The notes: generated from the letters alone by a model not told the origin. Positions 8,756 through 49,521 are shown, counted from the first letter of the stretch. The stretch is DNA of 64,000 bases from Planctomycetota bacterium (GCA_002686945.1 NYYZ01000044.1:18801-82800), one strand, 5' to 3'. Numbers and translations: made by a program.

Positions 8756-11071
8756 ATGCCTACGACCCAATCGGATTCAGGTCAGACCAAGGGCCAACTG
8801 GCCACGCCCAGGCTCGATCAGGCCCTGGATCGCCTGCGGATTGGCCTGCGTGGACTGCTCCTGCAGCATGGTCTGGGAACTGTATTGTTGGCCGCCGGGT
8901 CCTGGCTGGCATTCGCATACCTCGTCGACCGCAGCCTGCACCTGCCTGTGGCTCTACGTGTATTGGACGGAGTGCTGCTATTGGCACTGCCGCTCTTGGT
9001 CTTGCGCCGCGAAGTTCTCTTGCGCCTAAAGCAACTGCCCGATGGCGCCGGTCTGGCGGTGCTGCTGGAGCGAGATCTTGAAGGCTCCGAGGATCGCCTG
9101 GTGAGCGCACTCGGACTGCGCTCGATTCCCCCCAAGGACCCCGCTCGGCCCTTGGTGGAAGCTCTGGTGGTTGAAGCGGAAGAACTGGCCACGACCCTCG
9201 ACAGCAAGCATGTTCTTGATGCCAGCGGGCCGCGCAAACGGCTGGGCCTGGGCTTGCTCAGCGCGGCTCTGGCCAGTGCCTTGCTCCTGAGTGACCCCGC
9301 CCTGGGCGCGATCTTCGTACGTCGGGCCATGGGCCAGGACGTGGCCTGGCCCCGACAAACCAACCTCAGCGTACAGCTCTCTTTACCCTTGGGAGTCGAG
9401 GCCACGGAAACAGGTCCTGGCCATCTGCATGCACGCATCGCCCGTGGAAGTGATGTGACCTTGATGGTCAGCATCAAGGGTCAGATCCCCGACGAGATCG
9501 TGCTGCACTTTGGCGACGGCAGCCGCAGCGTAGTTCACACAGCCGGCGCCACCAGCGTACGCCCCAGCCTTCGCAATGTGCAGGCCTCTCAGGAGGTCTG
9601 GGTCATCGGTGGCGACGACGACCGGGGCCTGCCGCGCATCCAACTCGAAGTCCTGGAACCCCCTGACATCAGCGAGTTGGCCTTCATCGTGACGCCTCCG
9701 GGCTATACGGGCCTCCAGAAAACGGTGGTGCGTGGCACCGAGGTGCGCGCCCTGGTGGGCAGCCGTATCGATGTGTTGATTCGCCCTGACCCACCGGGGG
9801 CCACTGGCATCCTCAGGGTGCTGGGAGAGACTGGCACGATCGAGCTCGTACCGCGCCCGTGGAGCCTCCCCGGCGGCTCCCAAGAGGACACGGCCCTCGG
9901 TTGCAGCCTGGATGTGGATGTTGAGCGCTACTTCCAGGTGGAACTTGTAGACCAGCAGGGCTTGAGCAATCCCGACCCCGGGACCTATGCCCTGCAAGTG
10001 ATCGTTGACCGAGAGCCAGAGGTGATCCTGCTGGCCCCTGCGAGCAATGAGTGGTCCGTTGTAAAGGGCGGCGCAATCCCACTGCGTGTGCGCGCCGAGG
10101 ATGACTTTCGCATTGACCGCCTGAGTTTTGATGTGCGCGACTCCCAGGATCTGGAAACAGCTCTGCTCGAAGCAGAGCTGGCGTTTGAAGAAACCGCACT
10201 TCTGGATGGCGGTTTCATTGGCAACGGACATCTGGTTCTCGCGCACGAGTTGATTGAGCTCAATCAGATCGCCGGAGCTGACGTGGAACCCGGTTGGAAT
10301 GCGATCTTGCAAGTGGTCGCCCGGGACTCACACCCCTCCCCGGACCATCAGGCAATGAGTCCACCCGTACGCCTGCGCTGCGTCAGCGGCGATGAATTTC
10401 TGCGCAAGGTCAAGGATGGCCTCGCTCGGGCTGGAGAAGATGCCGGACGCCTGCTGCAGGAAACCCAGGACCTGCGCACGCGCGCATCCCAATTGAAGAG
10501 CGCCTTGGAAACCGGCGAGGTAGCCACGGATCGCGAACTGGGCAGCCTGCTGCACTCAACCCGTCGCCTGCAGGGAGACACCCGGAGCTTGGGGCGAGAT
10601 CTCTCGGGCCTGGCCGAGGGCCTGACCTACAACAGACTGGACGAGCGAGCAGGCCCTCTGCTGGACGCGCTGCACCGGGCCCTGGGAACCCAGGCAGCAC
10701 GCACCTTTGCCCCCGCTCCATGGCGCGAGGTGGCAGCCCAACTCAGCGCAGGTCGCCTGGGCACTCCGGAACTCGCGGGAGAGATGATCGCCCTGGTGGA
10801 CCTCGCCCTCTCGGTCAGCGAGGGCTCGGGCAAAGACGCATCCGAAGCACTGACGGGTGCCCGCACTGCCGACAGCGCGGCCAGCGCCGGCCCCCACCTG
10901 CTGAACGCCGTGGCTGCCCTGGACCTCTCCCTGGCAGCCCTCGATGCCCTGAGCACACGTTTGGGAGAATGGGACAACTTTCAGAGCGTGCTTACGTTGA
11001 CCAAAGATCTGCTCAACCGACAAAAGAACCTGACCGAGCGTACGAAGAACTTTGCCGAGGGAAACAAATGA
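8756..11071 (+). CDS. DUF4175-like membrane protein (N-terminal TM helices, beta-rich middle, C-terminal coiled coil)
   Basis: ATG 8756 lies 5 nt after the upstream stop. TM helices are present (LGTVLLAAGSWLAFAYLV, VLDGVLLLALPLLVL, LGLGLLSAALASALLL). Repeated Ig-like beta segments are followed by a helical tail. The family assignment is by architecture only. Confidence 0.55.
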   Translation: MPTTQSDSGQTKGQLATPRLDQALDRLRIGLRGLLLQHGLGTVLLAAGSWLAFAYLVDRSLHLPVALRVLDGVLLLALPLLVLRREVLLRLKQLPDGAGLAVLLERDLEGSEDRLVSALGLRSIPPKDPARPLVEALVVEAEELATTLDSKHVLDASGPRKRLGLGLLSAALASALLLSDPALGAIFVRRAMGQDVAWPRQTNLSVQLSLPLGVEATETGPGHLHARIARGSDVTLMVSIKGQIPDEIVLHFGDGSRSVVHTAGATSVRPSLRNVQASQEVWVIGGDDDRGLPRIQLEVLEPPDISELAFIVTPPGYTGLQKTVVRGTEVRALVGSRIDVLIRPDPPGATGILRVLGETGTIELVPRPWSLPGGSQEDTALGCSLDVDVERYFQVELVDQQGLSNPDPGTYALQVIVDREPEVILLAPASNEWSVVKGGAIPLRVRAEDDFRIDRLSFDVRDSQDLETALLEAELAFEETALLDGGFIGNGHLVLAHELIELNQIAGADVEPGWNAILQVVARDSHPSPDHQAMSPPVRLRCVSGDEFLRKVKDGLARAGEDAGRLLQETQDLRTRASQLKSALETGEVATDRELGSLLHSTRRLQGDTRSLGRDLSGLAEGLTYNRLDERAGPLLDALHRALGTQAARTFAPAPWREVAAQLSAGRLGTPELAGEMIALVDLALSVSEGSGKDASEALTGARTADSAASAGPHLLNAVAALDLSLAALDALSTRLGEWDNFQSVLTLTKDLLNRQKNLTERTKNFAEGNK

Positions 11072-13947
11072 GGAACCTGAGAATCCAGCTGCGGTCCATA
11101 CCACGCGCCCTGGCACAACTGACCCCGATTCTTGGTGCCCTCCTGCTGATCAGTCCAGGTCTTTCGAGATCGCTCCAAGAGGATACTCCCCAAGACGGTG
11201 GCATCTCCCGTGAGCAAGCGGCCCTGGCAGAAGAACAAGCTCTCATCCGCCGTCAACTGCGTCGCCTGCGGGAGACCATGAGCGCCCTGGCAGGTCGCTT
11301 GGAATCCGAAGGCCGGGTGCATGCGGCGGGCCTGCTGCGAGATGCCCTCGAAGATCTAGATCAACGATCCCAAGAAAGCAACGGACGCACCTTGGAGGAG
11401 TTGATCGATTCTTCTCGGGATGATCTCAGCGGTGGCCGCACCATGAGCGCCCTGGAACGGCAGCGTGCTGTAGAAGCGCGTTTGATGCGCCTGCTGGAAA
11501 TTCTGCTGGACCGACGCTCCCTCGATACTCTTGAAGAAGAACTGGCCCGCCTGAAGGAAATCAAGGAGGCTCTCCGGGAATTGAGTGGCCAGGAAGCAGG
11601 CCTGCAGGAAAAGACAGCAGCCCTGCGTCAGGCATCCAAGACCCGCGAACACCTGTCCTTGGAAGCAGCCCTTGAACGGATCAACCAGGAGCAGCGAGAT
11701 CTCTTGCATCGTTCGGAAGAACTTGCCCACTCATCGGGGACCTTTGACCTGGAGCAGCTACGCGCACGCCTGGCGGAGATGCTCGGCGATCAGGAACTGG
11801 CCGTGGGAGCACTGTCCACCTGGTCCCCCGCTGATGCCCAACGCCTGGAAGCCCTGCGCCCCGCTCTGGAAGCGGCCCGCTCCGCGGAAGAACAGGCCAT
11901 GAGCCTGCAGGAGAGCGCCGATTCATTGGCAGCCAGCGCCAAGGCCGATGATCTCGAAGCCAGCGCTGCTGCCTTGACAGAAGAATCCGCCCGCAAGGGA
12001 CGCCAGGCCCAAGCCTCCGGTGACGAGTTGTTGCAGGAGGCCGCCAAGGCCCTCGCGGAGACAGCTGAACAGATGCGCGCCGCCAACACCGAGGCGCAGA
12101 AGGCCGCTGCCAGGGCAGCAGCCCAGACCCAGGCACAACAGCTCGCCGGGGCCGCAACCGAAGCGCGCAACGCAGCCCGTAAGGCGCGCTCGGAATCTCT
12201 CCCCGCCGCAGAACAGATCGCTACCGAACAGACCACAACCGGAGCCGCCGCCAAGCGCATTGCTGAAGCCCTGCGCGAGGCGCAGAACTCCACCAGCCCC
12301 GAAACCAGCGCCGCGGAAACCGATCGCGCCGCTCGCGGAGTGGACGAAGGCCTGCATGCCCAATCGCGCATGGGCGATGCGATCAAGGCCAGCCAGGAAG
12401 AAGGCCAAGAACGCTCCGAGCGCCTAGCCAAGGACCTGGAACACACTGCCGCCAGCCCCACCCAACCTCAGATCAGCAGGGCCAGTGCCAGCCAAGCCGC
12501 CGAGGCCCTGCAACGCGGCGCGAAGGCGCAACAGCAGGCCGCCCAAGCTGCGGGCTCCCAGTCACAGGAGGCCGCCAAGCAAGCAGCCCAGCAGGCAGAA
12601 TCTGAACTGCGACAAGCCCTTGAGGCCCTCGATGAAGCCATAGCCCAGGCAGCAGAGAAAGACGGACGGCAGGACCAGCGCAAGGCACTCGCAGAAGAAC
12701 AGGCCTCACTGGAAGAGGACCTGGCCGAAGCAGCCAAGAACACGGACAGCGCAAGCCTAGGAAAGAGTGCACAAGAGGCAGTCCAAAGAGCAATCGAACA
12801 GGCCCGTAGCGCCATGAAGCAAGCAGCCAGCTCCCTGTCCAAACCTGGACAGGGCAAAGCGGCCGCGGAACAGCAACGCGAAGCCATAGATGCATTGAAC
12901 AAGGCCCAGAACAGCGCGGGAGAAGGCACCCAACCTTCAAGCCCGGAGGGCCAACAGACCGCCGCCGAGCTCGCGGCCGAACAGGAGCGACTGCGCCAGG
13001 AGATGCTCAACCTCGCCCGTCGCAACCAAGAGCGCAATGAAGCGGCCTCCAACGAAGCCCTCGACAGCGCCGCCGAGAACGCCCAGAAGGCAAGCCAATC
13101 CTTGAGTCAGGCGTCAGGTTCCCAGAGCCAGGGTTCCCCATCCGGAGGCCAGGAGGAACAGAACCAACCCGAAGAATCTGGTGGCCTGGAGCAGGCCGAA
13201 GAGCAAGAAGCGCGCACCCAGCAGGACCTGCAACAGGCCATGCGCGAACTTGAAGAGGAGGAGCAGCAGTACCAACGCCTGCGCCAGGAGGAGCTGCTCT
13301 TCCAGATCAAATCGGAAGTGGAAGCCATGCGGACCTCTCACTCAGAACAAATGAAGGCCACCCTCTCTGCGGACGAAGCCCGGGCCGGCTCACGCAATGT
13401 CTCCCGTCGCACGCGCATCACCCTGCGCTCGATTGCCCGAGAAGAAGACGCGGTGGGCGCACGAGCCAAGAAGGTAGCGGACGCCCTCGAAGAAGAAGGG
13501 GTACTGGTCTTCCACGAGATCATGCGAAACATCGAAAGCGATCTGACGCGCATCGTGCGAGACATGGGCGAGGGAGGCGGCTACCAATCGGGTGCTCCCT
13601 TACAGGCCTTGCAGAATGATGTGCTCCAATCTCTGGACTGGCTGGCAGGCGCCCTGAAAGACGAAATGGAGCGCCGCGAGCAGGAGCAGCAGGAGCAGGA
13701 ACAAAGCGAGGACGATCCTCCCCTGGTGCCAGATGCGGCCGAATTGCGTCTGCTGAAGAAGCTCGAGGAAGATGTTCTCGAGCGTCTCGCCCAGTTGCAG
13801 GTGTTGCACCCTGAGCTCGAAGACCCCGATGCGGAGCTCGATCCTCTGCTACTTGAAGAATTGACCCGCTTGGCCTACCAACACAGACGGGTTGGGGAAC
13901 TTTTTGAATACTTCAGGCGCCGTCTGGGAGTCCCGGACCCGGATTAG
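11068..13947 (+). CDS. Secreted giant coiled-coil, Ala/Gln/Glu-rich low-complexity protein (~960 aa)
   Basis: ATG 11068 overlaps the upstream stop (ATGA). A signal/anchor segment is present (LAQLTPILGALLLISPGLSRS). Heptad-like A/Q/E/R/L stretches run for hundreds of residues. The ORF-track start at 10720 lies inside the previous gene and was rejected. Confidence 0.7.
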   Translation: MRNLRIQLRSIPRALAQLTPILGALLLISPGLSRSLQEDTPQDGGISREQAALAEEQALIRRQLRRLRETMSALAGRLESEGRVHAAGLLRDALEDLDQRSQESNGRTLEELIDSSRDDLSGGRTMSALERQRAVEARLMRLLEILLDRRSLDTLEEELARLKEIKEALRELSGQEAGLQEKTAALRQASKTREHLSLEAALERINQEQRDLLHRSEELAHSSGTFDLEQLRARLAEMLGDQELAVGALSTWSPADAQRLEALRPALEAARSAEEQAMSLQESADSLAASAKADDLEASAAALTEESARKGRQAQASGDELLQEAAKALAETAEQMRAANTEAQKAAARAAAQTQAQQLAGAATEARNAARKARSESLPAAEQIATEQTTTGAAAKRIAEALREAQNSTSPETSAAETDRAARGVDEGLHAQSRMGDAIKASQEEGQERSERLAKDLEHTAASPTQPQISRASASQAAEALQRGAKAQQQAAQAAGSQSQEAAKQAAQQAESELRQALEALDEAIAQAAEKDGRQDQRKALAEEQASLEEDLAEAAKNTDSASLGKSAQEAVQRAIEQARSAMKQAASSLSKPGQGKAAAEQQREAIDALNKAQNSAGEGTQPSSPEGQQTAAELAAEQERLRQEMLNLARRNQERNEAASNEALDSAAENAQKASQSLSQASGSQSQGSPSGGQEEQNQPEESGGLEQAEEQEARTQQDLQQAMRELEEEEQQYQRLRQEELLFQIKSEVEAMRTSHSEQMKATLSADEARAGSRNVSRRTRITLRSIAREEDAVGARAKKVADALEEEGVLVFHEIMRNIESDLTRIVRDMGEGGGYQSGAPLQALQNDVLQSLDWLAGALKDEMERREQEQQEQEQSEDDPPLVPDAAELRLLKKLEEDVLERLAQLQVLHPELEDPDAELDPLLLEELTRLAYQHRRVGELFEYFRRRLGVPDPD

Positions 13948-14030
13948 GACACGAATAGCCGAGCGTGCTATGCTCAATATGCTTGGCCCGCCGATAAGAT
14001 GAGATAACAGACCAATTGGAGATCAAGACA

Positions 14031-40454: not shown

Positions 40455-43400
40455 ATGCAAGAGCCGGCTTTGATCCAGATCGGCTCCCTTGGAAAAGGCA
40501 CCAGCGGCCAGGTCTTGCACGCCAAACTGCTCGCGCCCCTGGGAGACTACGAAGCGGGAACAGAGGTGGCTCAGAAGAGGCCGCTCACCGCCGCAGGCGC
40601 ACGGAGTATCCAACGGGAGCAACTAGTCCTGGCTGGAGTCCAAGCCCCCAACTTGCAAGTCAGCCTGGGTCTGTTCGAAGACCAGGAAGGTCCCTTCCTG
40701 TTGACCCGCTTCATCGAGGGTCCAACCATCGCAGACCTGATTGCACAAGGGCCAATGGAGGACGAGCCCCTTCGGCGGGTGGGAAGAGACCTGGCCCAAG
40801 CTCTTGCCGCGCTGCACACTGCCGGCTGGCTGCATGGAGATCTGGCCCCCGCCAACGGACGCCAAGATCCAGAAGCCCGCACGATTTTGCTGGACCTGGG
40901 CTTCGCCGAGCGCACGGATGCCAAAGCCTCCTCCCGCGGGACCCCCGCCTACCTTTCGCCGGAGGAAGCCCGTGCTGCTCCCAAGACCTGCGCCTCGGAA
41001 ATCTACTCCCTGGGTTTGATCCTCTGGGAACTCGCCACTTCCAGTCATCCCCTCTCCCCGGACGGCCGTGCCTCAAATGTACAAGAGGAGGCTCTGACCG
41101 ACGCGGTTCATCTGCTGCCCAGCGCCCGCAATCCGCGCCTGGCCCCGGACCTGGATGAGTTGCTCGGACTGATGCTCGACGAGGAACCGAGCGCTCGCCC
41201 CACCGCGCAGGAGGTTGCCCGTTGGCTCGACAACCCTCCCCCCCCGCACGCCTGGGGTGAAGATCCCTGGGCCGCCCGGGACTGTCTGCCATTTGTTGGG
41301 CATAGGGAGGAAATGGCGCAGTTGCATCAGGCCTGGGAGTCCGCCAGCGCGGGCCAAGGAGCACTGGTCTGGCTCGAAGCCGACCGGGGCCTGGGAAAAA
41401 CACGCCTGATGGAAGAGTTCGTGCGGTCCCTGCGACGCGGTCCAAGTCCCGCAACCTACCTCGCGGTGCGCTGCGCAGCGGCACTCGAAGGCCGACCCAC
41501 ACACCCGATCCGAACCCTGCTGCGACGCTGGCTGGCCCTGGGACGCCACACTCCTGCCAGTCCGCGGGAGAGCAGACTGCTCGCATCCAGGACGACGTCC
41601 CATGTGGCAGCTGCCCTGGCCCAGACCCTCGATCCCGGGGCCGCCGCTCTGCCCCAGATGGAAATCACCCTGCTGTCTCATTGGCTCATCCGCACCGCAG
41701 GCAGCAGCCCCATGGTCATCCTGGTGGACGAACTACAACATGCTGGAGAGGCAACCCTGGCAGTGCTCTCGCGCCTGATCGATGTCCTGCCAGGACTGCC
41801 CCTCTTACTGGTCCTGGGGACACGCGCTCCAGAAAGCTCCCCAAACAAGGCCATAGCAGCCCTGGCGGCACGTGCAAGAGAAGCGCTCCCCCATATTCGA
41901 ATGCGCCTGTCGCCCCTGGACATAAAGAGCATCAAGGAACTGATTGATCTTACATTCGCGGGCAGCGTCCCAGCCGAGCGTCTCGCGCAGGCGCTGCAGA
42001 AACGAACCGAGGGACGACCCACTCGCATCGACGCCCTGATCAAGCAAGCCCTTCTCACCGGACTGATGCGTGTTCATGCGGGAGGTGGTTTGGAACTGGT
42101 GGGGGACATCGAAGACCTGCCCCACATGCAGGGGCGCATTCCCGACCTGCAAGCCCGCTTGACCAGCATGGACCCCGAGGCTCGCAACTGGATAGAACGC
42201 ATCGCAGTGGATGGCTCCGTCGCCCGGACCGAGCGGCTTGCCCAGGGTGCAACCCGCGATGAAGTGCGCGCTGCCATCGCCCTGTTGTTGCGTGAAAACT
42301 GGCTGGAGCAAGGACCTGAGGGCCCGGCCTTCGCGAGCAGCACGATTCGTGACGGAGTGCTGACTGCCATTCCCCATGCCAGGCGCAGGGAGCTTCACAG
42401 TCAGGCGGCAGATGCTCTGGCAAATGAGTCCGGATCTGGCCGTGCCTTCGAACGAGCCTTCCACCTCAAAGCCGCAGACCGGAAAGAAGATTTGCTGCAA
42501 CTCGTCTTGGAGTTGCTGCCCAAGGCTCAGGCCCTTGGTCATCCAGCACGGGTGCTTGTGCTGGTGGAGTGGGCTCTTGAAGGCAGCGCCCCTCCCCACC
42601 AGGAAGGGCAGCAAATTTCAGCCCATCAGGCCCTGGAACTGCACGCCGCCGCTGCAGAAGCAGCTGGGGGCCTGGGCCGCAGGCAACAGGAGAGCCAACA
42701 CCTGGATGCTCTGGTGGAACTTCCCTTAGACAGCAAACGAAATCCCACCGAAGTGGCCCGGGTCTACCTGCTGCACGGACACGCAGCGGCAGACACGGGG
42801 CGCGCAGGCCTTGCCCGCGGCTATCTGCGTAACGCAGCGCGCCTTGGACTGCCTGGCAAGCAAGCGGATCTGACTGCTGAAGCCCTCAGGCGCCTGGCAG
42901 AGATCGAGTTGGCCACGGGGAATCAAGAAAAGGCCCTGAAGCTGGCGCGCCGAGCCCGCTCCCGAGCCCACTCCCCCCTGGTGGGCTTGAAAGCCCTGCT
43001 GATCAAAGGTCTGATTGCTCTGCTGCAAGATCGGCCAACGCGTGCGCGAGCCCACGCCCGGGCGATTCTCAAACGCTGCGACAAAACCCCGGACACCCCC
43101 GCTCGAGCCGAAGTCGAAGCCCGTGCTTTGATTCTCAAGGCTCGCTGTCATTCCGCCATGGGAGATCCGGAAACGGCCTTGCCCCTCCTGCAGTCCGCCC
43201 TGCAAGCCGCAGAACAAGCGGGTCAACGGGCCCTGGAGGCCGAAGCCCACGCGCGTCTGGGTCGCGTGCTGATCGACCTGGACCAAGATCAAGCTGCAGA
43301 ACAATCACTGCGCGAGGGCCAGCTGATCGCCCAGGAGATTCGCATGGGCCAGGGCGAAGTTCTTGCGCGCCTTTTTCTTGGGACCCTTTTGATGGAGCAA

Positions 43401-43826
43401 GACCGAGGCCTCGGTGCGCGCCTGGTGAAGCAAGCTCTTGAGCGCGCCTGTGCCCTGGGATTGGTACGCGCCGAGTCCCTGGCCCAAGCAATCTGGGCCC
43501 GGGTACTCCGTACAGGAGACCACCCCAAGGAAGCCGCCGAAGCCGCGCGAGCAGCGCTGAATTCCCTCCAGCGGGTTGGCGCTGAACTCTGCGACCGCAT
43601 TGTGATCGTGGGCACCCACCAATTGATCATCGATCCCGAAGGAAGCGGAGACGAGTCCAGGAAGAGGTCGAGGGACTTGGAGCAGCGTATCGCCAGGGTC
43701 AGCCGAGCCGCCAGTCGTGGAGCGAACCGCGCGCGTATGAAAGCCAGCCTCGAATCCCTGAAGCGAGCGGTGGAGAACCCAGAAGGCCCCCTCTACCCCC
43801 GACGCGGGAGACAGACCGAGGACTAG
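40455..43826 (+). CDS. Ser/Thr protein-kinase-like domain + AAA (P-loop) ATPase + TPR-like repeats (STAND-type regulator, 1123 aa)
   Basis: Kinase subdomains have variant motifs (HGDLAPAN, DLGFA, GTPAYLSPEE). The P-loop is EADRGLGKTRLMEEF. A long helical/TPR C-terminal half follows. Confidence 0.75.
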   Translation: MQEPALIQIGSLGKGTSGQVLHAKLLAPLGDYEAGTEVAQKRPLTAAGARSIQREQLVLAGVQAPNLQVSLGLFEDQEGPFLLTRFIEGPTIADLIAQGPMEDEPLRRVGRDLAQALAALHTAGWLHGDLAPANGRQDPEARTILLDLGFAERTDAKASSRGTPAYLSPEEARAAPKTCASEIYSLGLILWELATSSHPLSPDGRASNVQEEALTDAVHLLPSARNPRLAPDLDELLGLMLDEEPSARPTAQEVARWLDNPPPPHAWGEDPWAARDCLPFVGHREEMAQLHQAWESASAGQGALVWLEADRGLGKTRLMEEFVRSLRRGPSPATYLAVRCAAALEGRPTHPIRTLLRRWLALGRHTPASPRESRLLASRTTSHVAAALAQTLDPGAAALPQMEITLLSHWLIRTAGSSPMVILVDELQHAGEATLAVLSRLIDVLPGLPLLLVLGTRAPESSPNKAIAALAARAREALPHIRMRLSPLDIKSIKELIDLTFAGSVPAERLAQALQKRTEGRPTRIDALIKQALLTGLMRVHAGGGLELVGDIEDLPHMQGRIPDLQARLTSMDPEARNWIERIAVDGSVARTERLAQGATRDEVRAAIALLLRENWLEQGPEGPAFASSTIRDGVLTAIPHARRRELHSQAADALANESGSGRAFERAFHLKAADRKEDLLQLVLELLPKAQALGHPARVLVLVEWALEGSAPPHQEGQQISAHQALELHAAAAEAAGGLGRRQQESQHLDALVELPLDSKRNPTEVARVYLLHGHAAADTGRAGLARGYLRNAARLGLPGKQADLTAEALRRLAEIELATGNQEKALKLARRARSRAHSPLVGLKALLIKGLIALLQDRPTRARAHARAILKRCDKTPDTPARAEVEARALILKARCHSAMGDPETALPLLQSALQAAEQAGQRALEAEAHARLGRVLIDLDQDQAAEQSLREGQLIAQEIRMGQGEVLARLFLGTLLMEQDRGLGARLVKQALERACALGLVRAESLAQAIWARVLRTGDHPKEAAEAARAALNSLQRVGAELCDRIVIVGTHQLIIDPEGSGDESRKRSRDLEQRIARVSRAASRGANRARMKASLESLKRAVENPEGPLYPRRGRQTED

Positions 43827-43975
43827 GGCCAGGCCGGCCCCTCCTTAGACCCTACGAGGGCCAGGGAAGGGCTATTTCGACACCCAACGGGGCCAGTACG
43901 CGCAGACGCGAGGCCCAGGGGTGGGAAAATCCAAGGTCTGACTCAGCGAGAACCTGCTCCTTTTGCGAATTCCGT

Positions 43976-44000
43976 ATTGATAATGAGACGCAGTCGCAAT
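43976..44000 (+). promoter_or_regulatory. AT-rich imperfect inverted repeat / weak Fur-box-like element upstream of apbE
   Basis: ATTGATAATGAGACGCAGTCGCAAT has ATTGnnA ... TnnCAAT arms. Its core GATAATGAGACGCAGTCGC matches 13 of 19 positions of GATAATGATAATCATTATC by hand count. It is an AT-rich island in GC-rich DNA, ending 14 nt before ATG 44015. Confidence 0.2.
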
Positions 44001-44014
44001 AAACTCCTGCACCC

Positions 44015-45202
44015 ATGGACCGCAAGACCCCCAAACCTGCAAACCTCAGAACCGCCAGGGCCCGGTCAGCCCTGGCCAGAGCGGCGTTTGCACTGACGGC
44101 TCATCCACCCCTGGAAGTCAATCGAAGCGTGTCTTTGGCAACCCGTTCGTTCGTAGCTGGCTGGGTTCTAGCTGGCCTTGCTTCGGGAAGTATCCCAGCC
44201 CGCACAAACCTCACAACCCAAGGACAAACCGCCTCCCGTTCCTCCGGTGCCTGCGTAGAACGCCAATTGGGCGTAATGGGAACCGGCCTGGAAATCGTGG
44301 TCTGGGCCCCGCAACGCAGCACCGGTTTGACCGCGAGCGAAGCGGGGGTGCGGGCGTTGGAAGAAACCGAAAAGCGGCTCTCCACCTGGCAAAAGGGAAG
44401 CGAGTTCTCCTCACTCAACCGCGCCACACTGGGCAGTTGGCAAGACCTCTCCCCTACCACCGCCGAGGACCTCAAGCGTGCCCTTGACCTTGCGCGCGCC
44501 ACCAACGGGTTGTTTGACCCAACCCTTGGACACCTTGTCCAGGCCTGGGACCTGCGTGGTGAGGGACGCCTGCCTTCGGCAGTGGAACTCGAAACGGCCC
44601 GATCAAAGTGCGGCTACCAAGGCATCGAATTCGATGGCACCAGGTTCCGGCGCACCCAAGATGTGCTCCTCGAAGAAGGAGCCTTCGGCAAGGGAGCGGG
44701 TCTCGATCGAGCGGCTAGCGCCCTCATGGCAGCCGGAGCACAGGCAGCCAGTTTCAATCTAGGGGGCCAGTGGCTCTTCGTCGGCCCCGGAGACTGGTCC
44801 GTGCAACTTGCCCACCCCGCCCATCGCACAGAAGCGGTGCTCGGCCTGCGCCTGCCCCCGGGATCAATGGCCACCTCCGCCAACTCCGAGCGCATGCTCA
44901 AGCTCCGCGATGGTGAAGTGGGCCATCTGCTCGACCCGCGCACAGGCATTCCAAGCGGCAAGACCCATTCGGTCAGCGTTTGGGCCAAGAGCGCCCTGGT
45001 GGCGGACGCCCTCTCCACAGCCATCTTCATCGACCCCTCAAGAGCTGCGGAATTCGCACAGCGGTTTGATGCGGAGGTCATTCTGCTCAGGACCACTGGG
45101 ACAGGTCTCACAGCAAGCATCACGCCGGGTCTGGTCAAGGTCTCTGATCCTCTGACCCCAAACCTGCAAATCATTCCTCTCGTTTATCAACAAAGTCACT
45201 AA
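44015..45202 (+). CDS. apbE: FAD:protein FMN transferase (ApbE family flavinyl transferase)
   Basis: MGTGLEIVVWA, FDPTLGHLVQAWD, GAFGKGAGLDRA, ATSANSER, HLLDPRTGIP and ADALSTAIFI are collinear with ApbE. An N-terminal hydrophobic anchor is present. The true start may be downstream of 44015. Confidence 0.85.
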   Translation: MDRKTPKPANLRTARARSALARAAFALTAHPPLEVNRSVSLATRSFVAGWVLAGLASGSIPARTNLTTQGQTASRSSGACVERQLGVMGTGLEIVVWAPQRSTGLTASEAGVRALEETEKRLSTWQKGSEFSSLNRATLGSWQDLSPTTAEDLKRALDLARATNGLFDPTLGHLVQAWDLRGEGRLPSAVELETARSKCGYQGIEFDGTRFRRTQDVLLEEGAFGKGAGLDRAASALMAAGAQAASFNLGGQWLFVGPGDWSVQLAHPAHRTEAVLGLRLPPGSMATSANSERMLKLRDGEVGHLLDPRTGIPSGKTHSVSVWAKSALVADALSTAIFIDPSRAAEFAQRFDAEVILLRTTGTGLTASITPGLVKVSDPLTPNLQIIPLVYQQSH

Positions 45203-45220
45203 GTAACCACCCAAGAACGA

Positions 45221-46453
45221 ATGTCTCTGCTCCTACTCTCTCTTGTTCTTCCGCTGCCCCAGGATCAGGTCAGCGATCGTCTCGATGCCCTGGCCCGAGA
45301 AAACCAAGTCCTCAACGCCAAGATCGAAGCCCTGGCCGACGAGCTTGAGCGGCGAGACCTGGGCGAGCTGGCCCCCTCCGAACTGACCCGTGTGGCAGGC
45401 ATGGGGCACTCCGCGTCCCGGGTTTACTCCAATGACCATGGCACCAGCGTAGGAGGCTATGGAGAGTTCCTCTACAACCTGCCCGCTGGCGCGGGCAACA
45501 CCTTTGACGCCTTGCGCGGAGTGCTCTATGTGGGCCACCGCTTCACTGAAAACTGGTTGGTCAACACCGAAATCGAATTCGAGCACGGCAGCACCTCCAA
45601 GTCTGGCAGTGCTTCATTGGAATTCGGCTACTTGGAGTATCTTGCGAGCGAATCCTTCGCCCTGCGCGCGGGTCTGCTGCTGGTGCCCATGGGTCTGGTC
45701 AACGAAAACCACGAACCCACCGCCTACCTGCCAGTCAGTCGCCCCAAGGTCGAGCAGCGGCTCATGCCGTCCACCTGGCGCGAGATGGGCCTGGGTGCCT
45801 GGGGTCGCAAGGACAACCTTGAGTGGCGCACCTATGTGGTCAACGGCCTGAGCGGAGCAAACTTCGACGACTCGGGTCTACGCGGCGGTCGCCAGAAAGG
45901 CAGCAAGGCGGACGCAGAGGATCTGGCTTTTGTGGAGCGAGTGGACTGGCACGCTTTCCCCGGCCTGACCGTTGGAGGGTCGTTCTATTTGGGAAACTCT
46001 GCGGGCAACAACGAGAACCTGGGAGGCTCCCTGGGAACGCAAATCATCGAATTGCACGCCACCTGGCAGGAGGGACCATGGCGCCTTCAGGCCCTGGCTG
46101 CCCAGGCGGAAATAGATGGGGCCCAGGCCTTCAACCAGAGCTTCATCGACGATCCCGAACTGGACAACCCGAACCTGGCCAATACCCTGCGTGGCGCCTA
46201 CCTGCAATTGGGATACAACATCTTGGCCAGCAGCGAGAGTTCCATGGCTCTCTCCCCTTATGTCCGCTTCGAGACCCTGGACACCCAGGCGGATCTGCCC
46301 TCGAACGCGGTGGCTGATCCCCGTTTCGATGAGGACATCGTGACCGTCGGTCTCGCCCTTGAGCCCACAGACGGGGTGATCATCAAGCTGGACTATGCCC
46401 GCAGCGACGAGAACTCTGACCGCACGGCCCTGTTGATCGGATACTCCTTCTGA
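45221..46453 (+). CDS. Outer-membrane beta-barrel (porin-like) protein with an N-terminal coiled-coil segment
   Basis: The N-terminus is hydrophobic. A coiled coil follows (RLDALARENQVLNAKIEALADELERRDL). Alternating amphipathic beta strands with aromatic girdle residues come next. The terminal residues are LLIGYSF, with the aromatic C-terminus typical of OMPs. Confidence 0.6.
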   Translation: MSLLLLSLVLPLPQDQVSDRLDALARENQVLNAKIEALADELERRDLGELAPSELTRVAGMGHSASRVYSNDHGTSVGGYGEFLYNLPAGAGNTFDALRGVLYVGHRFTENWLVNTEIEFEHGSTSKSGSASLEFGYLEYLASESFALRAGLLLVPMGLVNENHEPTAYLPVSRPKVEQRLMPSTWREMGLGAWGRKDNLEWRTYVVNGLSGANFDDSGLRGGRQKGSKADAEDLAFVERVDWHAFPGLTVGGSFYLGNSAGNNENLGGSLGTQIIELHATWQEGPWRLQALAAQAEIDGAQAFNQSFIDDPELDNPNLANTLRGAYLQLGYNILASSESSMALSPYVRFETLDTQADLPSNAVADPRFDEDIVTVGLALEPTDGVIIKLDYARSDENSDRTALLIGYSF

Positions 46454-47100
46454 TGGGAAACATGTCTGTGATCATCTGCCTGTTGCTCAGCTTCAGCGGC
46501 AGCGGCGGAACACCTTCCATGGGTCATCCAGATCCAGCACGCGTACAGCAGCCTGGGCCAAGCGCGCCGTTGACCTCCCATGAGAAGCGCCAGCCAACCA
46601 AACTGCTCACCGTGGACGAAGCCTTGGCTCTTTGCTTCCCCAAGTGCAAGACCACCCGTGGTACCAAGTTCCTTTCCCCAACAGAGGTCAAGCAGATCGC
46701 AAGGCTCTCAGGATCAAAGGACATCTCACGCATCGCCCATCCCTATCAAGCCCATGACTCACAAGGTGCCCTGGTCGGCACCGCCTGGTTTGACACGCAC
46801 CGGGTGCGCAGCAAGCGCGAGACCCTGATGATTGCCATCGATCCTCAGGGCAAGATCCTGCGCATTGAGGTGCTGGCCTTCGCGGAACCGCGTCAATACC
46901 GGCCCCCCGCCAAGTGGTACGGCCAGTTCAAGGGAGAACGCCTCTCCCCCAAACTCACCCCCAAGGGCAACATCAAGACAATGGCCGGGGCGACCCTGAC
47001 CACGCGCGCAACGGTTCAGTCCGCCCGCCGGGCCCTGGCCCTGCAGCAGGTCCTGGACGCTCGCAACCCCAAGCCCAGCCCAGTTGGGGCCACAAAGTGA
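46453..47100 (+). CDS. Periplasmic FMN-binding-domain protein (NqrC/RnfG/NosR-type, ApbE substrate candidate)
   Basis: The start overlaps the upstream stop (TGATG). A signal peptide is present. The flavinylation-type motif is IKTMAGATLTTRAT, compared with the [S/T]GA[T/S] consensus. Confidence 0.7.
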   Translation: MGNMSVIICLLLSFSGSGGTPSMGHPDPARVQQPGPSAPLTSHEKRQPTKLLTVDEALALCFPKCKTTRGTKFLSPTEVKQIARLSGSKDISRIAHPYQAHDSQGALVGTAWFDTHRVRSKRETLMIAIDPQGKILRIEVLAFAEPRQYRPPAKWYGQFKGERLSPKLTPKGNIKTMAGATLTTRATVQSARRALALQQVLDARNPKPSPVGATK

Positions 47101-47525
47101 GCCGCACGACCGCCTGGTTGATCCACCTCTCCGCCCTGGGGCTGGGAGCCACGGGGATGGTTTATGGCTGGTTGCGCTACTTCACCGATCCCGTGGATGA
47201 GTTTGCGCTCTACAACCACCCCTCGGAACCGGGCCTGCGGGATGTGCATCTGTTGCTGGCGCCCTTATGTCTGTTCCTCTGGGGAGTGATCTGGCGCAGT
47301 CATGTGTGGGCACGATTTCGCGCGGGCATGCAGAAACGCCGACGCACGGGCATAGCCTTGATGGCCTTGGTGCTACCTATGGTGCTATCCGGCTACATGT
47401 TGCAAGTAGCAGTAGATGAGTCCCTGCGCCAGCTTTGGATCTGGACCCACGGGATCACTGGAAGCGGCTGGATCCTGCTTTACGCGCTGCACCAACTTGG
47501 GCCTCGCAGTCAGGAAGCAAGCTAA
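47097..47525 (+). CDS. Small 4-TM His-rich membrane protein (DUF4405/cytochrome-b-like candidate)
   Basis: GTG 47097 overlaps the upstream stop (GTGA). Four hydrophobic helices are present. His residues lie near both membrane faces (LIHLSA; VHLLL...WRSHVW; WTHGITGSGWILLYALHQL, which is H-x13-H). Confidence 0.55.
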   Translation: MSRTTAWLIHLSALGLGATGMVYGWLRYFTDPVDEFALYNHPSEPGLRDVHLLLAPLCLFLWGVIWRSHVWARFRAGMQKRRRTGIALMALVLPMVLSGYMLQVAVDESLRQLWIWTHGITGSGWILLYALHQLGPRSQEAS

Positions 47526-48427
47526 CCCTCGCGGGTCAGGCCCAGGAAACGCTCGATCGCCCGGCCGGTACGATGCCAGGGACCTTCCCGCTCAAGGATC
47601 TGGACTACCGCGCGCATCAACATCTTACGTCGTTGCGAATCTGACTCATAAGCAACCATGAAGCGCGCAAGATCCGAGGCAGATAGGAGGCTGCCTGCGG
47701 GGTAACGACCAAGAATCCAGCGCATCAAGCGGGCCAGATTCTTCTTCGCCACCTGATCCATGCCCCTGTCAAGCAAACGGCAACGATCAAGATCGATGAT
47801 CCAAATCTTTGTGGGTTCTGGGCCCTTGAGATCTAGCGGCTCAACCAAGAGATTCGCGGGCTGCAGATCCACATGGTCAAGTCCCAAACGATGGGCTTCC
47901 CCCAAGGCCTGACCTGTGCTGGTCAACAATTTACGCCAGGCGCTCCTCTCCAGTTCACCCCGCAAGCGCTCTGCCAGCATTGCGCGCAGGTCGCGTGTAC
48001 CCTTCACGAGACGCATGCCCACCTCCAATTGCCAGGACCTGGGTCCTTGATGGAGGGCGCGCAGGGAAACCAACTCGGGCACCGCGACCCCACGCCGGGC
48101 GAGTTCCAAAGTCAGCCCGACCTCATCCAGTAAGCGACCTGGATCTTTGAATCGCTCACCAGTGATCGCGCGCAGGAGACCCCCGTGCACATAGCGGCGA
48201 ACGAGCACCAGCCCACACTCATGATCCAAGGTCGCCGGGGGCCGACGACCAGGGCTGTCGTATTGGCCCCGGGGGCCGTCGCCTTCAAGGCCGTAGCCCA
48301 AGTCCGAGAAGCCAGCGGCCCAATCCGGAGCGCAGCCAAAGAAACTCTCCCCTCGACGGACCAAAGTCCAGTCAGGGGGCGAGTTGATCTCGCGGCCGTT
48401 GGAGGTTGCTCCGTGGATCACGGGCAA
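47522..48427 (-). CDS. Lipopolysaccharide kinase (Kdo/WaaP/InaA) family protein, KdkA-like
   Basis: VLVRRYVHGGLL, a catalytic-loop-like GLDHVDLQPANLLV, and IWIIDLDRCR are present. The start is non-ATG (TTG 48427 or GTG 48421). Its stop overlaps the convergent gene's stop. Confidence 0.65.
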   Translation of the reverse strand: MPVIHGATSNGREINSPPDWTLVRRGESFFGCAPDWAAGFSDLGYGLEGDGPRGQYDSPGRRPPATLDHECGLVLVRRYVHGGLLRAITGERFKDPGRLLDEVGLTLELARRGVAVPELVSLRALHQGPRSWQLEVGMRLVKGTRDLRAMLAERLRGELERSAWRKLLTSTGQALGEAHRLGLDHVDLQPANLLVEPLDLKGPEPTKIWIIDLDRCRLLDRGMDQVAKKNLARLMRWILGRYPAGSLLSASDLARFMVAYESDSQRRKMLMRAVVQILEREGPWHRTGRAIERFLGLTREG

Positions 48428-48462: not shown

Positions 48463-49467
48463 CTACTCGAGGCCAGCTCCAAAGCTGGCCGGAGGTGAAG
48501 CGGACGCTTCTGTTTCCTGTTCGGGGGCAGGCTCGGGGGCGGACTGTGCTTTCGGCGCGCGCTCTCTTGCGGGTGCCTCGGCTGAATCGTTGTGGGAATC
48601 ATCTTGGGATTCCAAAGTCGGTTCCGTAGAGACTTCGTCAGGAGAATCTCCGGAGGGATCATCCACGCCCCGACCAAAACCACCGGCAGGCTCGCGCTTG
48701 GCGGCAGGCTTGCGGTCCTTGGGCGCAGGACGCTTCTCGTCGCGATCACTGCCACGATCATTGTCGCGATCATTGTCACGGTCTCTCGCACGGTCCTCTC
48801 GGTTCCGACCTCGACCTCGGTCATCATTTCGATCTCGGCCGCGACCACGGCCACGGCCTTGACCCCTGCGCCCACGCCCACGCCCGCCGAAACCTTCCCG
48901 CTCGACCCCATCGTCGTACTCATCAATATCGTCGATGAACTCAGTAGGGATCTCCTCGGAAAGAAAAATCGCGCCACGGTCATAGAAATCGATACCGTCT
49001 TCCCAGGCGTCGCCCGCCAAGACACAGATCACCGCATAGCGCCGATCCAGGCGACGGCCAACCTCCCGGGCCTCCTCCTCGGTGAGGGACAGGTGAATGT
49101 GCGAACGACGCACACTTTTGAGGCCGTCACGCTCAACGTTGGGCACATCCCGGCCACGCACAGTGGCAAACAACTCGTCCGGCGGTTCGTCCGGTTCCCC
49201 GGGATCCACCTCGATCGAGTGGCCATAAAGGGCGCGAATGCGACCATCCTTGATCTCGTATCGTGCACGGTCGGCCCCAGCCAGGGCCTCGTTCACGTCT
49301 TCCTCTTCAACCGACTCGCCGAGCCGCTCATTGAGGGCCCGAACAACATCGTCCAGGTTACCCCAGCCGAACTTGTCGAGTTCCAGATCGAATTCTTCCG
49401 GCTGGTGCCGGAGCATGTATGCCAGCGAACGGGTCAGACGCTCGTGGAGAGAAAATTCAGTTTCCAT
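48463..49467 (-). CDS. kptA: RNA 2'-phosphotransferase Tpt1/KptA fused to a ~150-aa RG/RD-rich disordered tail
   Basis: LTRSLAYMLRHQPEEFDLELDKFGW, DGRIRALYGHS and RRSHIHLS preserve the R-H...R...R catalytic tetrad. After ~185 aa comes GGRGRGRRGQGRGRGRGRDRNDDRGRGRNREDRARDRDNDRDNDRGSDRDEKR..., then an acidic/Pro-rich end. Confidence 0.8.
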   Translation of the reverse strand: METEFSLHERLTRSLAYMLRHQPEEFDLELDKFGWGNLDDVVRALNERLGESVEEEDVNEALAGADRARYEIKDGRIRALYGHSIEVDPGEPDEPPDELFATVRGRDVPNVERDGLKSVRRSHIHLSLTEEEAREVGRRLDRRYAVICVLAGDAWEDGIDFYDRGAIFLSEEIPTEFIDDIDEYDDGVEREGFGGRGRGRRGQGRGRGRGRDRNDDRGRGRNREDRARDRDNDRDNDRGSDRDEKRPAPKDRKPAAKREPAGGFGRGVDDPSGDSPDEVSTEPTLESQDDSHNDSAEAPARERAPKAQSAPEPAPEQETEASASPPASFGAGLE

Positions 49468-49521
49468 CACGGGGGATTGTATCCAACTGACCGCCCGTCC
49501 GCACGGATCCAGGCGCTCCCA

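Follow-up and report, generated by a model that had tools for sequence, protein, structure and literature searches.

Why would a bacterium keep genes for a flavin transferase, an outer-membrane porin, a secreted flavin-binding protein and a small histidine-bearing membrane protein next to one another on a single strand? The question is raised by four genes at positions 44015-47525 of a stretch of Planctomycetota DNA, referred to here as the window (the whole stretch that was analysed, 64,000 nucleotides (nt) in length). These genes, which have a promoter-like site and a palindrome immediately upstream, are what we call the cassette. From the sequence and the predicted structures, we assign a probability of roughly 60% to the reading that the cassette is a Fur-repressed periplasmic redox module for reductive iron assimilation. 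The elements on which the argument turns are as follows (aa, amino acids; FAD, flavin adenine dinucleotide; FMN, flavin mononucleotide; TM, transmembrane; AF2, AlphaFold2):

43977-44005, + strand: sigma-70-like promoter with -35 TTGATA, a 17-nt spacer and -10 TAAACT, assigned by consensus match only
43982-44000, no strand: Fur-box-type 19-bp 9-1-9 palindrome AATGAGACGCAGTCGCAAT, matching 12/14 positions of ATTGAGA-N5-TCTCAAT
44015-45202, + strand: ApbE-family FAD:protein FMN transferase, 395 aa (Pfam ApbE, 4.4e-56)
45221-46453, + strand: 16-strand outer-membrane porin, 410 aa (predicted structure from AF2, Foldseek)
46453-47100, + strand: FMN-binding protein, 215 aa, predicted substrate of ApbE (Pfam FMN_bind, 28.4 bits)
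47097-47525, + strand: inner-membrane protein with four TM helices (4-TM protein), 142 aa, predicted di-heme b-type electron conduit (AF2, invariant His)

The operator and the cassette behind it

The first-pass annotation of the window, made from the sequence alone, had described an AT-rich inverted repeat with weak similarity to a Fur box ahead of the four genes. This repeat is real, as judged both by a footprint among the orthologues and by its match to a validated Fur box of Caulobacter. In the window the palindrome is imperfect, and it becomes clear only once the orthologous loci are compared: an inverted-repeat search of the upstream region with a seed of 6 found none, and the agreement of the site with the Escherichia coli Fur consensus (13/19 positions) is uninformative alone. 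The orthologous upstream regions, which are otherwise unalignable, have a common block just before the ApbE start, and the family consensus, ATTGAGACTGAGTCTCAAT, is a perfect 9-1-9 palindrome. Within the 64-kb window, AATGAGACGCAGTCGCAAT is the sole site that matches at least 11 of the 14 positions of ATTGAGA-N5-TCTCAAT. When the same motif was scanned across 1.29 Mb of related loci, 66 sites with at least 12/14 were found, 18 of them perfect, relative to the ~4 expected on the assumption of uniform composition (fewer in DNA of >60% G+C). Fifty-nine of the 66 sit at relevant 5' ends, i.e., those of the cassette (37), of an adjacent fur gene (14) or of FTR1 (8), and five of the other seven are no more than ~100 nt away from where a merged ApbE-porin open reading frame (ORF) begins, the start estimate being off there (loci L071, L085 and L090). 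The palindrome fills the spacer separating the -35 from the -10 element of TTGATA-17-TAAACT, which is the only promoter-like site in 43700-47800 and lies ~10 nt upstream of the ApbE ATG. The Fur box of Caulobacter crescentus, verified by gel shift, is the same 19-bp 9-1-9 motif, e.g., ATTGAGAACCATTCTCAAA, and the Caulobacter Fur site ATTGCGACGCACTCGCAAT precedes a TonB-dependent receptor gene (PMC2724300). The cassette is best read as a single Fur-repressed operon.

The four + strand genes and all of their junctions are as they had been described. The ApbE stop and the porin start are separated by an 18-nt gap, the porin TGA (46451-53) and the ATG of the FMN-binding protein gene (46453) have one base in common in a TGATG overlap, and the TGA of the FMN-binding protein gene (47098-47100) overlaps the GTG of the 4-TM gene (47097-99) as GTGA. 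A longer ORF starting at 46914 is possible for the 4-TM gene; the GTG at 47097 is favoured because all nine close homologues start with M-S-R there. The unit is bounded downstream by a convergent Kdo/WaaP-like kinase gene (47522-48427, - strand), while the upstream neighbour, a 1123-aa Ser/Thr kinase-AAA-TPR gene (40455-43826, + strand), ends 188 nt before ApbE. Synteny of these bracketing kinase genes is confined to the Planctomycetota lineage.

To follow the cassette beyond the window, one genome per GTDB species was scanned with an alignment of the FMN-binding protein, which gave 80 loci; hidden Markov models (HMMs) were built locally for the four proteins, and completeness was counted in the 68 loci that had room on both sides. 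The co-occurrence on which the first-pass annotation had staked its functional proposal was borne out: ApbE-porin-FMN_bind-4TM was complete in 61/68 loci, essentially always in the same order. The 80 loci belong to Planctomycetota, Acidobacteriota (Thermoanaerobaculia, Holophagales), Eisenbacteria, Myxococcales and Elusimicrobia, with a single cultured carrier, Rohdeia mirabilis Pla163. The cassette also occurs in Verrucomicrobia and Bacteriovoracaceae; a search that started from the 4-TM protein recovered it in a metagenome-assembled genome (MAG) of Bacteriovoracaceae and in one other lineage. Close relatives among Planctomycetota MAGs match the window in all four genes and in what flanks them, and at one Myxococcales locus (L055) the porin gene stands ahead of ApbE. 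The incomplete loci among the 68 comprise three without a nearby ApbE, one without a detected porin and three without the 4-TM protein. Because any one neighbouring family was common to no more than 15/81 loci, i.e., the flanking genes are poorly conserved, the four genes behave as a self-contained module.

The 4-TM protein is missing in five loci when truncated contigs are included, and in four of these five a different four-helix protein of 168-175 aa is encoded at that position. This protein has a conserved EV(S/T)HAHL...LLLTHL signature and no Pfam match, and it was located at L085:6192-6896, L086:2718-3224 and L091:5718-6245; at L090 the replacement gene was not listed on the + strand, the position being covered only by an antisense ORF (10294-11049). 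The replacement loci come from Eisenbacteria, Elusimicrobia and one member of the Acidobacteriota, and the protein seems to have taken the place of the membrane partner without being its orthologue.

Iron genes near the cassette were counted with local HMMs in 82 loci. A Fur-family gene was found in 26 loci, FTR1/FtrD in 18, a TonB-dependent receptor in nine and FeoB in six. At least one iron gene was present in 27/82 loci, all of them from Acidobacteriota or Verrucomicrobia. The suggestion that the module handles iron, which had been raised as one option for its substrate, thus gains support from both the Caulobacter-type Fur box and the flanking or co-operonic iron genes. Two same-strand orders recur: palindrome-fur-feoB-cassette, exemplified by L062 where the palindrome abuts the fur ATG, and palindrome-fur-FTR1/FtrD-FtsX-(ABC)-cassette. 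We read these same-strand orders as operons. In a further recurrent arrangement, FTR1 is divergent from fur-palindrome-cassette. The trio found in Verrucomicrobia (43-44% identical) lies between feoAB and the gene for a DtxR-type repressor. A distant relative of the 4-TM protein (29% identity) is encoded in a region (L093:3366-7408) with cupredoxin, FTR1, HemP, DUF6662, a 139-aa ORF, ApbE and 4-TM genes; the genes of this locus are fragmented, probably by assembly frameshifts.

The flavoprotein, the porin and the four-histidine protein

Of the family memberships that had been proposed for the four products, those of ApbE and FMN_bind stood above threshold, whereas those of the porin and of the cytochrome-b-like families stayed below it and a match to DUF4405 (PF14358) was not listed for the window 4-TM protein in Pfam. 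The window ApbE matches Pfam ApbE across residues 88-355 and NCBIfam ApbE at 1.8e-18, the latter under the cut-off, and a hydrophobic N-terminal segment (residues ~45-62) lies ahead of the ApbE domain. The FMN-binding protein exceeds the gathering score of Pfam FMN_bind, which is 22, and has weak matches to RnfG in NCBIfam; a hydrophobic N-terminus is found in all of its orthologues. The flavinylation-type MAGATLT that had been noticed in this protein is present at residues 177-183, and T181 in M-A-G-A-T181-L-T is predicted to be the flavinylated residue. In the alignment of 82 orthologues the motif reads [T/A/S]-G-A-[T/S]-L-[T/S], with G in 82/82, A in 79/82 and T or S at the modified position in 82/82; at the first motif position T or S was found in 61/82. 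The G-A-[T/S] core fits the target motif of ApbE, [S/T]GA[S/T] (PMC8238504). Pairing of ApbE with this substrate is supported by the invariant motif, by the adjacency of ApbE in ~90% of orthologous loci and by recurrent fusions of ApbE to the 4-TM protein. We infer that FMN is covalently attached to the FMN-binding protein.

Two further observations on ApbE were made in the related loci. In many Acidobacteriota loci a second, divergent ApbE gene is convergent directly after the 4-TM gene, on the - strand (L027:3424-4374, L033:10875-11840, L035:1402-2427, L038:8442-9407, L039:10884-11849, L046:6432-7406, L078:10875-11897 and L080:10918-11940). In several loci the ApbE and porin HMM matches fall within one continuous ORF, being either real fusions or merged reading frames (L008:8001-9905, encoding the 634-aa P0041; L045:1343-4189; L071:3137-5452; L085:3338-5812; L090:7596-9929).

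The dedicated barrel of the first-pass annotation is supported by the predicted fold and by its place between the ApbE and FMN-binding protein genes in the large majority of complete loci. As modelled by AF2 (predicted local distance difference test (pLDDT) of 87.9), the porin has a helix at residues 15-50, which is a coiled coil and is read as periplasmic, and then 16 β-strands; a long loop (155-186) occupies the L3 position, and the C-terminus, ...GYSF, ends in Phe. Foldseek matched the model to OmpT, OmpF, OmpC, OmpK36 and OmpM1 at approximately E = 1e-12, with TM scores normalised to the target of 0.64-0.70. Only sub-threshold matches to OMP_b-brl and Porin_O_P were obtained in Pfam (for Porin_O_P, PF07396, 13.2 bits against a cut-off of 20.9, with faint matches in few homologues), and NCBIfam gave nothing for this protein. 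The porin has >1472 homologues. Its invariant residues form a ladder-like arrangement on strand 3 (N115, E117, E119, E121 and H122) and recur in the L3-like loop (N161, H164, E165, R174 and E178), which argues for a defined substrate and not for a role as a general pore. The idea that the porin is itself a flavinylation substrate, as in DUF3570-like proteins, was considered and set aside: it has no DUF3570 match, and its only SGA-like string, SGAN, has neither Thr nor Ser at the modified position and is unconserved in the family consensus.

The 4-TM protein has His at residues 10, 41, 51, 69, 118 and 132. The four helices, the His near both membrane faces and the H-x13-H spacing that had been reported were all found, the last as H118-x13-H132, while H51 and H69 are spaced by x17. 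In an alignment of 87 members (30-78% identity to the query), only G20, H51, P56, H69, H118 and H132 are invariant, so that the number of invariant His is exactly four, with TM2 and TM4 bearing two each; H10 is not conserved, and the first periplasmic loop has a nearly invariant H41-P42. In the AF2 model (pLDDT 94.2) the helices span residues 3-29, 44-75, 82-104 and 108-134, and the invariant His are located on 44-75 and 108-134. By the positive-inside rule the N-terminus and loop 70-84 (RFRAGMQKRRRTG) would be cytoplasmic, which would put H51 and H118 close to the periplasm and H69 and H132 close to the cytoplasm. As candidate heme ligands the residues pair as H51/H118, on the periplasmic side, and H69/H132, on the cytoplasmic side. 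Such an arrangement, with a pair close to either face of the membrane, is the textbook one for two bis-His b hemes.

The size of this family depended on the search: a word-based search gave nine close relatives, and an exhaustive profile search gave 835 clusters (at 50% identity) at E ≤ 1e-3, with 449 at E ≤ 1e-10. No relative listed has any source name but "hypothetical protein". There is no Pfam model for the family, and the window protein has no above-threshold match in Pfam and nothing in NCBIfam. Its match to Ni_hydr_CYTB (PF01292) reached 17.5 bits against a threshold of 30.1 (E = 0.0036). Across the family the sub-threshold Pfam matches concentrate on two models, Ni_hydr_CYTB in 24/87 members and DUF4405 in 17/87, and the best E among all 87 members is 1.4e-05. 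The best Foldseek match of the 4-TM model, at E = 0.6, was chain 6g94_B of HyaC (TM score normalised to the query 0.58, probability 0.91), the cytochrome b of E. coli hydrogenase-1; no match was found by Foldseek at E ≤ 0.001, and a PDB search with the protein sequence was empty. DUF4405 proteins bind heme b and associate with apbE (PMC11334425). Thus, for the cytochrome-b-like reading proposed earlier, the four-His pattern and the weak affinity to Ni_hydr_CYTB and DUF4405 held up, whereas membership by Pfam thresholds did not. We conclude that the 4-TM protein is probably a remote, unmodelled relative or an analogue of di-heme b cytochromes, outside every curated family.

In-frame fusions of the 4-TM domain to a fifth hydrophobic helix and a full ApbE (P0141, P0165, P0170, P0211, P0261 and P0277) were found in the exhaustive search, in proteins from separate 50%-identity clusters, and these fusions tie the 4-TM family functionally to flavinylation. 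Two apparent FMN_bind-4TM fusions (P0177 and P0242) were set aside; they seem to come from gene calls with frameshifts, and the flavinylation motif is lost in them.

A proposed route for iron and its rivals

In the mechanism that we favour, Fur would come off its 19-bp operator between the promoter elements when iron is limiting, and transcription of the four genes would follow. ApbE, anchored outside the cytoplasm, would attach FMN covalently to Thr181 of the secreted FMN-binding protein. The 4-TM protein, with two bis-His b hemes (H51/H118 and H69/H132), would carry electrons across the inner membrane to this flavoprotein from a membrane or cytoplasmic pool, i.e., quinol or a cytoplasmic reductase. 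The 16-strand porin would let an iron species into the periplasm, most likely inorganic or weakly chelated Fe(III), and the flavoprotein would reduce Fe(III) to Fe(II) for import by FeoB- or FTR1-type permeases, whose genes share the operon in Acidobacteriota and presumably lie at another site in the planctomycete genome of the window. What the analysis itself establishes is which genes are present and in what conserved order, the invariance of the motif and of the His, the predicted folds, the conserved operator and the iron genes nearby; the covalent flavin, the heme, the source of the electrons, what the porin lets through and which way electrons flow are what we infer. A more specific proposal, which we put forward tentatively and at less than even odds, is that the cassette constitutes the self-contained front end of a reductive iron uptake that is independent of siderophores and TonB, made up of an iron-selective porin whose invariant constriction is lined by Glu and His, a periplasmic ferric reductase with covalent flavin, and, as the source of electrons, a minimal 4-TM family of di-heme b cytochromes of ~140 aa that had not been recognised before. 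With the same reserve, such a front end may be widespread in marine and soil Planctomycetota, in Acidobacteriota and in their neighbours.

Several observations weigh against the assimilatory reading. The 4-TM protein is under the Pfam thresholds of every cytochrome family and has no significant match by Foldseek or by PDB sequence search, and the spacing of its TM2 His is x17 and not the canonical x13-14. The motif of the window flavoprotein opens with Ala (AGAT) and not with S/T, this first position being the less critical one. The adjacent Fur paralogues match Fur models slightly better than PerR models, with both scores below the cut-off. Among Planctomycetota the cassette has no iron gene at its flanks, where IF2, RbfA, the Ser/Thr kinase and the Kdo kinase are encoded, so that in this phylum it is the operator by itself that links the cassette to iron. 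Electron flow could moreover be reversed, because FTR1/FtrD systems are usually modelled as Fe(II) oxidisers.

This last point leads to a rival that we regard as unlikely, yet the least so of the three considered: the flavoprotein and the 4-TM cytochrome would take up the electrons released when Fe(II) is oxidised in the periplasm, and the Fe(III) would go to an FTR1-type permease; alternatively, the two would keep iron cycling between its redox states. An electron-sink role has been proposed for FtrB/FtrD in FtrABCD systems, which reverse flow would resemble. Such a flow would fit the finding that FTR1 with a fused FtrD-like domain is the commonest transporter beside the cassette (18 loci), and also the distant relative that is accompanied by cupredoxin and FTR1. 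Against it, the cassette is equally found in one operon directly behind feoB, a gene for an Fe(II) importer that needs reduced iron, and in Verrucomicrobia it adjoins feoAB; most loci, that of the window included, are without a nearby FTR1, and the published associations of flavinylation with iron are read as reductive. Slightly less probable still is that the 4-TM protein is not a cytochrome but an Fe(II)/metal permease as the last step of a path from porin through reductase to permease, a membrane anchor or a helper that supplies ApbE with FAD, in which case the flavoprotein would receive its electrons from a component encoded elsewhere. The missed thresholds and structural matches speak for this, as do the nearly invariant His41-Pro42 in the periplasmic loop and the fact that most loci are without an inner-membrane iron transporter of their own, and the recurrent ApbE fusion also fits a helper of ApbE. 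Against these stand the four invariant His, two per helix with one pair per face, which are the hallmark of bis-His di-heme b proteins and parallel MsrQ, PepSY and DUF4405, together with the concentration of sub-threshold matches on two cytochrome-b families; in addition, loci without the 4-TM protein carry another small His-bearing 4-TM protein in its stead.

The remaining rival departs from iron altogether and seems to us improbable, more so than the other two: the cassette would perform another periplasmic redox task, such as oxidative-stress repair, Mn handling or dissimilatory extracellular electron transfer, under a Fur-family regulator of PerR or Mur type, with the porin as a general pore. 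Flavinylated systems have many functions, and the closeness of the Fur paralogues to PerR models would also be explained. The operator, however, is like validated Fur sites and not like PerR or Zur boxes, and the co-operonic genes are those for FeoB, FTR1/FtrD, TonB-dependent receptors and HemP. In the orthologous loci no MsrP, reductase or multiheme partner is conserved beside the cassette, and a 16-strand porin would, from its fold, be too narrow for a protein electron conduit. Reductive iron assimilation under Fur is thus the reading that we prefer.

Elsewhere in the window, two other ORFs drew attention. A 1075-aa protein rich in Ala, Glu and Gln (10720-13947, + strand) looks like a long coiled coil and explains a spike in AT skew (0.396) that the composition profile shows at 12001-14000. 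A 335-aa ORF (48463-49470, - strand) has a long C-terminal tail of low complexity, rich in Arg, Gly and Asp (GRGRGRRGQGRGRGRGRDRNDDRGRGRNRED...); in related loci the counterpart of this ORF matches the Tpt1/KptA RNA 2'-phosphotransferase family.

Relation to known systems

That ApbE goes together with an FMN_bind protein and a small membrane cytochrome, often in connection with iron, is an established concept (PMC8238504, PMC11334425). Clusters for flavinylated electron transfer have been associated with assimilatory iron reduction, iron transporters and Fur regulation, and in them too ApbE is accompanied by a secreted FMN_bind substrate, with a motif of the [S/T]GA[S/T] type, and by a small membrane protein with His for electron transfer across the membrane (Meheust et al., 2021, PMC8238504; mSystems, 2024, PMC11334425). 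The cassette differs from these clusters in three respects. The 4-TM protein, with 142 aa, four TM helices and His pairs on TM2 and TM4, fits none of the described classes (NapH-like, MsrQ-like, PepSY-like, DsbD, NQR/RNF-like or DUF4405) at Pfam thresholds. The porin is an integral, conserved member of the cassette, whereas the word porin is absent from both papers (PMC8238504, PMC11334425). The transporter partners here are FeoB or FTR1, whereas theirs is VIT1. A literature search found no paper on the four-gene cassette, the integral porin, the 4-TM family or the cross-phylum Fur-box footprint. With ~835 clusters of proteins of ~140 aa, the 4-TM family would add a sixth or seventh class to the electron conduits already described.

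Cytochromes of the b561/Ni_hydr_CYTB type (HyaC, FdnI; PF01292) resemble the 4-TM protein, as modelled, in being four-helix transmembrane bundles with four His. The FdnI-type family has a single His on each of TM1 and TM2 and a pair on TM4, whereas here TM2 and TM4 bear two each, the score is below threshold and there is no hydrogenase or formate dehydrogenase partner. The operator has its closest counterpart in the Fur-alpha box of the α-proteobacterium Caulobacter crescentus, where the same 19-bp palindrome, ATTG(A/C)GA-N5-TC(T/G)CAAT, lies over promoters for iron uptake (da Silva Neto et al., 2009, PMC2724300); the box predicted here comes from Planctomycetota, Acidobacteriota and Eisenbacteria, whereas that of Caulobacter is α-proteobacterial. 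Flavinylation-based periplasmic electron transfer has so far been tied to iron assimilation by gene neighbourhood only, and to this the cassette adds a clear Fur operator kept across phyla. That a porin is dedicated to the cluster and fixed in it suggests that a defined small substrate enters without TonB. As the module is found in abundant, poorly studied marine and soil lineages and in the cultured planctomycete Rohdeia mirabilis Pla163, it would offer a testable route to siderophore-free iron acquisition there. The nearest functional analogy is the reductive iron uptake of cyanobacteria, in which Fe(III) enters via a porin, is reduced at the plasma membrane and is imported by FeoB. The cassette would follow the same TonB-independent logic of porin, reduction and Fe(II) import, with the difference that the reductase here would be a dedicated flavinylated protein together with a small cytochrome, encoded beside its own porin.

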